Assembly (NCBI RefSeq): GCF_002854065.1
Contig: NZ_CP024150.1
Source: Escherichia coli
Lineage (GTDB): Bacteria > Pseudomonadota > Gammaproteobacteria > Enterobacterales > Enterobacteriaceae
DNA: 64,000 bases
Direction: 5' to 3' (one strand)
Position 1 is the stretch's first letter. Each line of letters opens with the position of its first letter. Positions 3,965 through 6,900 of this stretch are shown here, in pieces. Made by a program: the position numbers.

Positions 3965-6900
3965 CAACGGATAATCAGCTCCGTTTATCTCACCCTCTTT
4001 CATCTTTTCGTAAGATTGTATTTGGGTAAGTCCCTTAAAGAAGAACTCCTGCGGGGTCATATTCGGGCGGGCATCTGTTCCCTCCTCGGCTACCGCCAGC
4101 AAGAAATCACTCTGTACTGGCCGCACGATAGCGCGAATGAGATCTGGTAGCGCCTTAACGGGTAGTTTCTCTGCCACAGAAAGCAGGTGATTAAAGCGTT
4201 TTTTTTCATTGGCTATAGTTGCTTTCTCTTTCTTGTTTCGGTTCCAGAACATCACTGTCCGTAGCACTCCTTATCGTGATCAAGATGATGGTTTTTAATT
4301 CTAATGCTGCGGTAGTTTCACGTCACGCACACATGCATATTCTTCAAAAGCTTCGGCGTCAGCCGGTCAACCAGTTCCGCCTAGTACCACAGGATAAACA
4401 GGCTCCCCACTAAAATTACTTCTTGATTAGTACCACGTACTAAAATGTTTGATTTTAGTACGTGGTACTAGTATGATTATCAGCATGAAGCTAAAGGAGC
4501 CAGTGGGATGAACTATCTGGAGTTTGTTGAAACCAGCGCTTTCAGTGGTCTGCGTAAAGAGCTCATGGATGATGATGAATTTCGGGAACTGCAGACCTAT
4601 TTACTGGAAGCTCATGATCGGGGTGACACTATCAGTCACACAGGTGGATGCAAAAAGATTCGGTGGAGCCGCCCAGGGATGGGGAAGCGAGGTGGCGTCA
4701 GAGTGATTTACTACGTTCGCCTTGCCAGCGGCAGATTATACCTGCTTCTGATATACCCTAAGAATGCTAAAGATGATCTTAGCGAGAAAGAAAAAGCCGT
4801 TATGAAGGTATTAGCACAGCAGCTGAAATAATGGTACCACTCAAATGGTGGCAGGCCTCTCCATAACGAGGAAAAATTTATGGAAAAGAAACTTTTTGAT
4901 GCACTTATTAACAGCATGGAGGAAATGGTTGCCATTGAGAATGGCCAAATCCAGCCAGCTGAAGAAAATATTCACCGCCATACACTGCCGGATGTGAAGG
5001 CTATTCGTAAACATGCCGGAATGAAACAGGCTGAATTTGCAGAAGTGGTGGGAGCCAGCGTTGACCTTATCCGCAGCTGGGAACAGAAACGGCGTATCCC
5101 GTCGGGTATTGCGTTGAAAATGCTCTGTCTCATCGAACGTGAGCCAGCACTGATTAATACCTTGCGCAGCATTTAATCCTGAATTTCTAAAGCCCAGTTA
5201 GATGGGCTTTAATATTTGTGATTCTGTTAACTTCGATCTGACTGCATCGTCACGTAGGCGCATAATGACACCCGGTAGCCGATACTGTTCTCAGGGACGG
5301 GTTTCTGAACTAACCTAAAATCCAGTCGTAATGATCCTCGTGAGTTACAGGGCTGTCTGATGACATAATACAGACATTCCCATAACCACCATCATGCGAA
5401 GCTGCATATTTAGACACGGCGATTGCATCATTTTTATTTTTTAATACCGCAATGATTTTTCCACTGTTATGCAATGTACTTACGCAGTAGATCCCTTAGT
5501 GCAAAATCTGATTTTCTTTTAATTGACTAGCCATGCCGATTACCCTTCTCCGTACAGAATGATTAATTGTGCAAAGGTAGCTGATCAGTTCGTCAACCCG
5601 CCGTGAATACGTATCTTCAATCTGTATTCTGTTTCTGTGTACCGTTACAGACCCTGATTACTGTCATCTTTGATACGCCAGCCAGACGGGCAGTTTCTCG
5701 CAGCGATTTTCCGTTGACCATGCGCAGAGTACGTATCAGTTCATGTTTCTGCGCATCGGCCACCCTGCCCCGGTATTTTCCTTCAGCTTTCGCTTTACAG
5801 ATTCCCTCTGCCTGCCGACGTCTACGGTCTTCGTAGTCTTTTCTGGCAATGGCGGCAAGCATATCCAGCATCATGCTATTTACGGCCTTTAACATGCTTC
5901 TGGTGAAGTCATCGCGGACTGCGTTGGTCAGGGCCATATGGCTGGTTGGGAGATCAAGACTGACAACAGATAACCGTTTATCTGTTATCTCTTTTCTAAG
6001 AATCACCCAGCCAGCATCATTCAGACGGGATAGCCGGTCCACCTGTTCAATCAAAATAACGTCCCCAGGCTCCATATCTGCAAGCATCCGAGTTAATTCC
6101 GGACGGTTCAGGGATGCACCTGATGCATTTTCAACATACCAGCCAGCAATTCGATGACCATGAAGCGCTGCAAATTCTTTGAGCCTGTTTTTTGAACGAA
6201 GCGCGTCTTGTTCCATTGTTGAAGCTCGAAGATATGCGTAAATGTACATTTTTTGCACGCCTGGTCTAGTATGAGTGGTCTATTATATAGTGGTAACTTT
6301 TAACTGGTACCATATCCAGGAATTCAAATCAATACTTGTGGTCATTTTTGGGGATACCCGAATGTGACTGACTGACTCGCCCGGGCGGGCTTGTCCAACC
6401 CCTCCCCCGTTCAGAAACAAGTTCTGAACAGACTCACGGTTTCGGAAACAGGTCAACAATATTAAATACGATCACATGAAATATTTCTTGGACACTTTTT
6501 CCGATAGTGCCGAAACGTCCACGATGGATCGTATTTTTTGTATATCCCAGGTTCAGGATTGACGGTGATGGAGCGAAGCACTGATTGAACTGGACTGAAA
6601 ATGCTGTATGTCCAGTCAGCCGGAGAATTATACTAGCGACCATGAGCATCACAGGAAGAACGCGTAACAGATGGCAACTGAGTGGGTAGATGTGGCTGAT
6701 AATGCCGTTAAAATTGGGCTTGGCTCTGCGCTGACAATATTGGGCGGTTATCTAACGCTCAAATTATCTCAGCGGCACGAGTTAAGGAAAGAAGCATTAA
6801 TTCGACGACGTAAAGATTTTGAGGTGAAAACTGAGCGTTACGTGAATTTTTTATCCAGTTCAAGAAAGATGTTGCAGAAATATACTATCAGCAATTTTAA

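Follow-up and report, generated by a model that had tools for sequence, protein, structure and literature searches.

A paired-box palindrome is the probable promoter-operator of a plasmid-borne HigB2/HigA2-type toxin-antitoxin operon in Escherichia coli

Antitoxins of type II toxin-antitoxin systems repress their own promoters through palindromes, and the antitoxin MqsA of Escherichia coli binds two palindromes in its own promoter. Here we analyse a long inverted repeat at positions 4428-4470 of a 64,000-nucleotide stretch of E. coli DNA (assembly GCF_002854065.1, contig NZ_CP024150.1; hereafter the window means this whole stretch), which lies ahead of a toxin-antitoxin gene pair of the HigB2/HigA2 type. 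The nearest relative is HigA2 of Vibrio cholerae (VcHigA2), a repressor in vivo whose dimer bends the bound DNA by 33 degrees; its footprint is a single palindrome, TGTACGC-N5-GCGTACA, reaching from after the -35 hexamer over the -10 hexamer, and four residues, Arg68, Glu71, Asn72 and Arg77, make base-specific contacts in the crystal structure (PMC11006873). The toxin-loaded HigB2-HigA2 tetramer, crystallised on operator DNA (PDB 8a0x), binds the operator as well. The HigA antitoxin of Proteus vulgaris (Rts1) recognises two inverted-repeat operators, O1 and O2, laid over the promoter, with one dimer on each and both needed for full repression (PMC12266136). On the Acinetobacter baumannii plasmid pAB120, HigA2 represses the operon with HigB2 as its co-repressor, and the module has a stabilising effect on plasmids; that work did not map the operator (PMC5906591).

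A first-pass annotation of this DNA had reported a perfect 18-bp palindrome, AGTACCACGTACTAAAAT-gtttg-ATTTTAGTACGTGGTACT, at 4429-4469. The repeat is found there and its symmetry is indeed perfect, but the arms are 19 nt and not 18 nt long, the complementarity running on by one base on each side.

4428-4470, no strand: composite perfect inverted repeat, 19-nt arms TAGTACCACGTACTAAAAT (4428-4446) and ATTTTAGTACGTGGTACTA (4452-4470), 100% complementary, 5-nt spacer GTTTG

The same annotation had called the repeat unusually long, and this holds: the window contains no longer perfect inverted repeat with a loop of at most 12 nt, and in dinucleotide-preserving shuffles of the window (n=30) the longest arms reached only 9-12 nt. 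As single-stranded DNA, 4428-4470 has a predicted fold of -19 kcal/mol (z = -8.9 against shuffles). The palindrome is far beyond chance. Elsewhere in the window, the runner-up among close perfect inverted repeats (TAATTGAATGCGAAGT / ACTTCGCATTCAATTA, 13666-13709) has 16-nt arms and a 12-nt loop, and also exceeds the shuffle maximum of 9-12 nt.

The feature is better read as two 17-bp sites, each suited to one antitoxin dimer and here named O1 and O2, than as one palindrome with 18-bp arms. The boxes and the predicted promoter elements around them are as follows (N3 denotes any three nucleotides).

4427-4443, no strand: distal box O1, TTAGTAC-CAC-GTACTAA, a 7-3-7 palindrome with its GTAC-N3-GTAC core at 4430-4440, just upstream of the -35 hexamer
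4449-4454, + strand: predicted -35 hexamer TTGATT (promoter scan, 9/12 matches with a 17-nt spacer), straddling the palindrome centre between O1 and O2
4455-4471, no strand: proximal box O2, TTAGTAC-GTG-GTACTAG, also 7-3-7, core at 4458-4468, centred in the 17-nt spacer between -35 and -10
4472-4477, + strand: predicted -10 hexamer TATGAT (promoter scan), 3 nt past the O2 core
4494-4499, + strand: Shine-Dalgarno sequence AAGGAG, 8 nt before the toxin ATG and kept in the Klebsiella version of the module

The two boxes start 28 bp apart, and each is the kind of site that a helix-turn-helix (HTH) dimer binds, a dyad of 17 bp whose half-sites are centred 10 bp from each other. The GTAC-N3-GTAC core occurs twice in the window, at 4430 and 4458, both times within the palindrome, and a pattern search of the 64 kb allowing up to three mismatches returned no further credible box. 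Two symmetries add up to the perfect 19-nt repeat: each box is a palindrome by itself, and O1 and O2 are, in this lineage, also exact mirror images of each other. We propose O2 as the main repressor site and core operator, and O1 as an auxiliary antitoxin-dimer site, that is, an accessory operator, because the proximal box alone is found in every relative, some of which have no other.

Two partial resemblances to the boxes were also noted. An exact extra copy of TAGTACCAC, the O1 left half-site plus N3, lies at 4382-4390, 46 bp upstream of O1; this copy of TAGTACCAC lacks a second GTAC and falls outside the segment shared with Klebsiella, and TAGTACCAC at this position may be a decayed third box or may be due to chance. 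A half-box, TGGTACCAC, at 4832-4840 between the toxin and antitoxin genes was treated as chance; its GTAC is not kept in the Klebsiella copy (GGCGCCAC).

The palindrome sits in a 240-bp intergenic region between divergent genes and ends 38 nt before the start of the toxin open reading frame (ORF) at 4508. Its centre falls on the predicted -35 hexamer and its right arm fills the predicted promoter spacer. The combination TTGATT-17 nt-TATGAT is the only sigma-70-like site on the + strand between the divergent gene and the toxin start, from which we infer a transcription start near 4483-4485. The operon itself consists of two genes.

4508-4831, + strand: toxin gene, first in the operon, 107 amino acids, a HigB2-like RelE-fold mRNase by homology
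4880-5176, + strand: antitoxin gene, 98 amino acids, with an N-terminal toxin-binding segment and a C-terminal XRE-type HTH domain, predicted recognition helix S60-E68

The toxin matches Pfam PF06296 ('RelE') with an expectation value (E) of 9.5e-9 and 36 bits against a curated cut-off of 27, and V. cholerae HigB-2 (PDB 5ja8) with E 2.8e-18 over residues 6-97. The antitoxin is recognised by the HTH_3 model and by the NCBIfam model NadS (NF041265; 85 bits, cut-off 60), and is similar to V. cholerae HigA-2 (5jaa; E 5.6e-6) over HTH residues 37-94. Its AlphaFold2 model, built with 25 homologues, has a mean predicted local distance difference test score of 90 and a helix at residues 4-20, and the best PDB fold matches of the model are all HigA2: chain A of 8a0x, 5jaa, and 5j9i, the isolated C-terminal domain of HigA2 (root-mean-square deviation 1.8 A over 68 residues). 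The toxin-first order with a PF06296 RelE-fold homologue of HigB-2, together with an antitoxin combining an N-terminal segment and a C-terminal XRE-HTH domain (best model match 8a0x chain A and 5jaa), places the pair in the HigB2/HigA2 type. The first-pass annotation had placed the palindrome upstream of a HigBA-like operon, at its expected promoter, and had described the antitoxin as an HTH protein. All of this stands; the label can be narrowed to a toxin-first HigB2/HigA2-type pair, the HTH assignment agrees with the HTH_3 and NadS matches and the HigA2-like XRE fold, and the overlap with the predicted -35 and spacer recurs in the same register in 30 distinct loci.

These loci came from a scan by toxin alignment with one genome per species, which yielded 80 loci, to which the window and four plasmid loci were added. 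A GTAC-N3-GTAC core about 50 nt before the toxin start was present in 31 loci (30 distinct sequences), all from Enterobacterales and with toxins at least 52% identical; besides the window they include loci of Klebsiella, Phytobacter, Pantoea, Yersinia, Xenorhabdus, Photorhabdus, Rahnella, Serratia, Providencia, Buttiauxella, Brenneria and others. Aligned on the box, the 30 distinct loci give the consensus TTGAnn-3 nt-GTACnnnGTAC-3 nt-TAnnnT, the proximal box being always centred in the 17-nt promoter spacer. In 19 distinct loci the proximal box is joined by a second one, 28-31 bp further upstream. Photorhabdus, Serratia and Providencia have the proximal box only, and sometimes a decayed half-box stands in place of the distal one. 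The geometry is also retained in sister clades whose antitoxins differ in the recognition helix, but with different half-sites, for example CTTAC-N3-GTAAG and AACAC-N3-GTGTC; in the first of these examples the box again lies between a TTGA-type -35 and a TAnnnT -10.

Closer to the window, the locus is 100% identical to conjugative IncFIA/IncFII plasmids of E. coli, and 217 PLSDB records match at least part of the module, which is common on conjugative plasmids of Klebsiella and E. coli. Klebsiella plasmid copies are 90.9% identical over 4427-5166, the similarity starting exactly at 4427 and the DNA upstream being unrelated. Both 17-bp boxes are unchanged in these copies (34/34 positions) against 9% divergence over the whole module, and the changes inside the 43 bp are confined to the innermost arm base and the spacer. 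By sequence comparison, then, the putative operator travels with the module.

The bases flanking the core also change together with the antitoxin. Where antitoxin position 62 is S or G and position 65 is Q (window numbering), the base next to GTAC is C in 61/62 half-sites; D62/R65 antitoxins, the window's included, go with A 17 times, C 9 times and G twice, and W62/K65 antitoxins with G in 4/4, all counted irrespective of phylogeny. Aligned to VcHigA2, window positions 62, 65, 66 and 71 correspond to the base-contacting Arg68, Glu71, Asn72 and Arg77, of which only the Arg77 equivalent (R71) is conserved in the window antitoxin. A flank base that changes with these residues is the pattern expected if the antitoxin reads the boxes. 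The site is thus conserved with its module, and its apparent specificity tracks the DNA-reading residues of the antitoxin (with the counts again ignoring phylogeny).

Together, these features suggest that the palindrome is, with good probability, the promoter-operator of a plasmid-borne HigB2/HigA2-type type II toxin-antitoxin operon. An inverted repeat lies over the predicted -35 and -10 region of the operon next to it, and the antitoxin of this operon has a DNA-binding domain. The autoregulatory operator proposed in the first-pass annotation is supported by the promoter register, the gene pair, the conservation, the flank covariation and the VcHigA2 precedent. The antitoxin dimer, either free or carrying toxin on its N-terminal segment, would bind each box through its two HTH motifs. 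Occupancy of O2 within the -35/-10 spacer, with O1 filled upstream, would let the pair of dimers bracket the -35 hexamer and exclude RNA polymerase, such that the operon represses itself and is de-repressed when the labile antitoxin is degraded. By analogy with experimentally studied relatives, autorepression of this kind is the most likely mechanism. The sequences themselves show the anatomy, the conservation and the covariation; antitoxin binding, the stoichiometry of two dimers and the role of the toxin as co-repressor are inferred.

Several points weigh against this interpretation. The predicted promoter agrees with the consensus at 9/12 positions, a level of match that is near background here (3 found, 2.3 expected); the -10 of the Klebsiella copies is weaker (TACCAT). 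The flank and residue counts take no account of shared ancestry. The GTAC cores of the window are 7 bp apart against 13 bp in the V. cholerae operator, the only one among the relatives to have been defined by experiment. Lastly, a model of independent dimers leaves unexplained the compensatory mirror symmetry of the N3 triplets in some lineages. The O1 and O2 triplets are mirror-matched at 27/51 positions against 14.1 expected (permutation, P ~0.0004), 6 of 17 distinct pairs are perfect mirrors, and in three close loci whose recognition helices do not differ the pairs are TCA/TGA, TGA/TCA and CGA/TCG, which amounts to two compensatory double changes. Independent dimer sites do not predict mirror triplets, because each triplet is centred on the dyad axis of its own dimer.

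One explanation of this symmetry is a single 43-bp two-fold symmetric operator in which two antitoxin dimers are bridged by toxin or by their N-terminal tails, or else an extruded hairpin that is functional. Such a higher-order assembly or hairpin would explain why O1 and O2 keep their mirror symmetry, including the central triplets that are not contacted, and the symmetric operator, if true, would be a recognition mode not described for the single-site HigA2. Many loci of Xenorhabdus, Pantoea and Winslowiella have unrelated triplets and the single-box loci have no partner box, and therefore complementarity of the arms is not the conserved property; we regard the bridged operator or functional hairpin as unlikely. 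Quasipalindrome template-switch mutations are established in E. coli, and on this basis the mirror triplets most likely result from hairpin-templated homogenisation, which would reinforce itself once the arms are long and perfect.

It is also conceivable, though improbable, that the extended symmetry matters as DNA structure, either as a hairpin or cruciform that modulates the promoter, in single-stranded DNA entering by conjugation or in supercoiled DNA, or as a neutral by-product of hairpin-templated mutation. The stable fold predicted for single-stranded DNA (-19 kcal/mol, z -8.9), the location on a conjugative IncFIA/IncFII plasmid, the identity of the N3 mirrors far above expectation with its 6 perfect pairs, and the double compensatory changes among the three close loci all fit with this. 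Most relatives, however, keep the boxes without long complementarity (the arms in Pantoea are 86-87% complementary over 14-15 nt, around a 19-nt loop), the N3 triplets of many Xenorhabdus loci are unrelated to each other, and many relatives have only the proximal box, so that no hairpin can form; structure is therefore not what is conserved. The -10 hexamer, moreover, lies outside the hairpin, which means that the hairpin could not rebuild a double-stranded promoter.

Very improbable is that the boxes are sites for some other protein (a regulator of host or plasmid origin, a recombinase, a partition protein) or the boundary of a mobile cassette, with the toxin-antitoxin genes adjacent by coincidence. 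A serine recombinase gene does lie downstream, and the similarity to Klebsiella begins exactly at the palindrome, as expected of a cassette edge.

5617-6258, - strand: serine recombinase gene, 440 bp downstream

Against this, the boxes are found with the toxin-antitoxin pair in many unrelated settings, on chromosomes and on plasmids, where the neighbouring genes differ, keep a fixed register with the -35 and -10 and covary with the recognition helix of the antitoxin itself, and the window holds no second copy or matching end for a cassette. An RNA element (intrinsic terminator, attenuator or small RNA) is hardly credible despite the strong stem-loop: an Rfam 15 scan of 4100-5400 at a permissive threshold gave only eukaryotic microRNA families, mir-559 at 24 bits and MIR1862 at 23 bits, far below their gathering scores of 95 and 84, an intrinsic terminator at 4428-4470 is ruled out by the lack of a T-run on either strand and a silent terminator scan, the flanking DUF6710 (-) and toxin (+) genes point away, and the hairpin lies upstream of the predicted -10 and thus outside the operon transcript.

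Several further observations concern the locus and its relatives. In a Klebsiella/E. coli copy (p98194), TACCAT in place of TATGAT makes a further TAGTAC half-site right after O2 (GGTACTAGTACC), and the TACCAT of the Klebsiella version may mean a weaker promoter or an extended operator. The toxin-antitoxin intergenic segment 4832-4879 is identical to the Klebsiella version at 46/48 positions against about 91% in the coding regions, and holds a small CCAC...GTGG stem just ahead of the ribosome-binding site of the antitoxin; the segment may be a translational control element. More distant homologues have other operator-like palindromes at the same place: those of Azotobacter (L059, L064) have GTAC cores 13 bp apart, which is the V. 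cholerae spacing, and those of Stutzerimonas/Pseudomonas (L053, L062) have TACGCCA-N-TGGCGTA adjoining the -10. In homologues on Pantoea megaplasmids (L003 570-600, L004 514-535, L013) a -10-like TAAAGT abuts the GTG start of the toxin gene, which suggests a leaderless toxin mRNA, whereas at other loci the leader is about 25 nt long and contains a Shine-Dalgarno sequence. The remaining features around the module are listed below.

5188-5211, + strand: terminator-like hairpin, 9-pair stem, with too few T in the tail for a strong call
3869-4267, - strand: DUF6710 gene, 132 amino acids, left neighbour of the palindrome
1978-3768, - strand: gene for a fusion of NERD nuclease and UvrD-like helicase, 596 amino acids, preceding the DUF6710 gene

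The hairpin after the antitoxin gene is likely the end of the operon. The NERD/UvrD-like helicase and DUF6710 genes (1978-4267, -) resemble a two-gene unit on the plasmid, possibly an anti-phage defence pair. A DUF6710 promoter using the palindrome was considered and rejected: the sole promoter-like site on the - strand is at 4326-4298, well away, and the palindrome lies within the region shared with Klebsiella modules that have no DUF6710 neighbour.

For the field at large the result changes little, as V. cholerae HigA2, the nearest relative, has already been crystallised in complex with its operator. It does provide a precise map of the proposed operator and promoter for a HigBA2-type module that is common on conjugative plasmids of Klebsiella and E. 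coli; a literature search covering 'NadS' by name, and HigBA2 from Klebsiella or from IncF plasmids, found nothing on this operator. The relatives also form a natural specificity series, in which R, Q or K at residue 65 stands against a flank of A, C or G, with clades of TTAC and CAC cores in addition, and which could supply orthogonal repressor-operator pairs or serve to test rules of HTH recognition.

Compared with the V. cholerae system (8a0w/8a0x; PMC11006873), the locus shares the toxin-first order, a homologous toxin, a two-part antitoxin and the same HTH fold, and in both cases a perfect palindrome with one GTAC per half-site lies between -35 and -10. V. cholerae has a single TGTACGC-N5-GCGTACA operator, whereas the window has two TTAGTAC-N3-GTACTAA sites, 28 bp apart and bracketing the -35, so that box number, spacing and flanks all depart from the single-site paradigm. 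Three of the four base-contacting residues differ as well (R68/E71/N72 in V. cholerae, D62/R65/S66 in the window), and the V. cholerae locus is a cassette of the chromosomal superintegron whereas that of the window is on a conjugative IncF plasmid. The contact geometry of V. cholerae is not simply transferable because the half-site spacing differs, and its transfer base by base is ruled out by N3 against N5. Proteus vulgaris HigB-HigA (Rts1; PMC12266136) is alike in being a plasmid-borne, toxin-first operon, but HigA and HigB belong to another subfamily, without the HigA2-type N-terminal toxin-binding tail and with other operator sequences; the likeness, drawn by analogy, is one of architecture and not of sequence. 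The A. baumannii pAB120 pair (PMC5906591) is likewise a plasmid-borne HigB2/HigA2-type module, likened here by type and not by protein sequence. E. coli MqsR-MqsA is also toxin-first, and the C-terminal XRE-HTH of its antitoxin is distantly related (41 bits to TIGR03830, below the cut-off of 61.8; E ~2e-3 to MqsA, PDB 3gn5/3fmy), but MqsA has an N-terminal zinc-binding domain that is absent in the window antitoxin, and its toxin is of another fold family. The locus is therefore a familiar kind of regulation with a variant operator architecture within the HigA2 family, and not a new kind of system.

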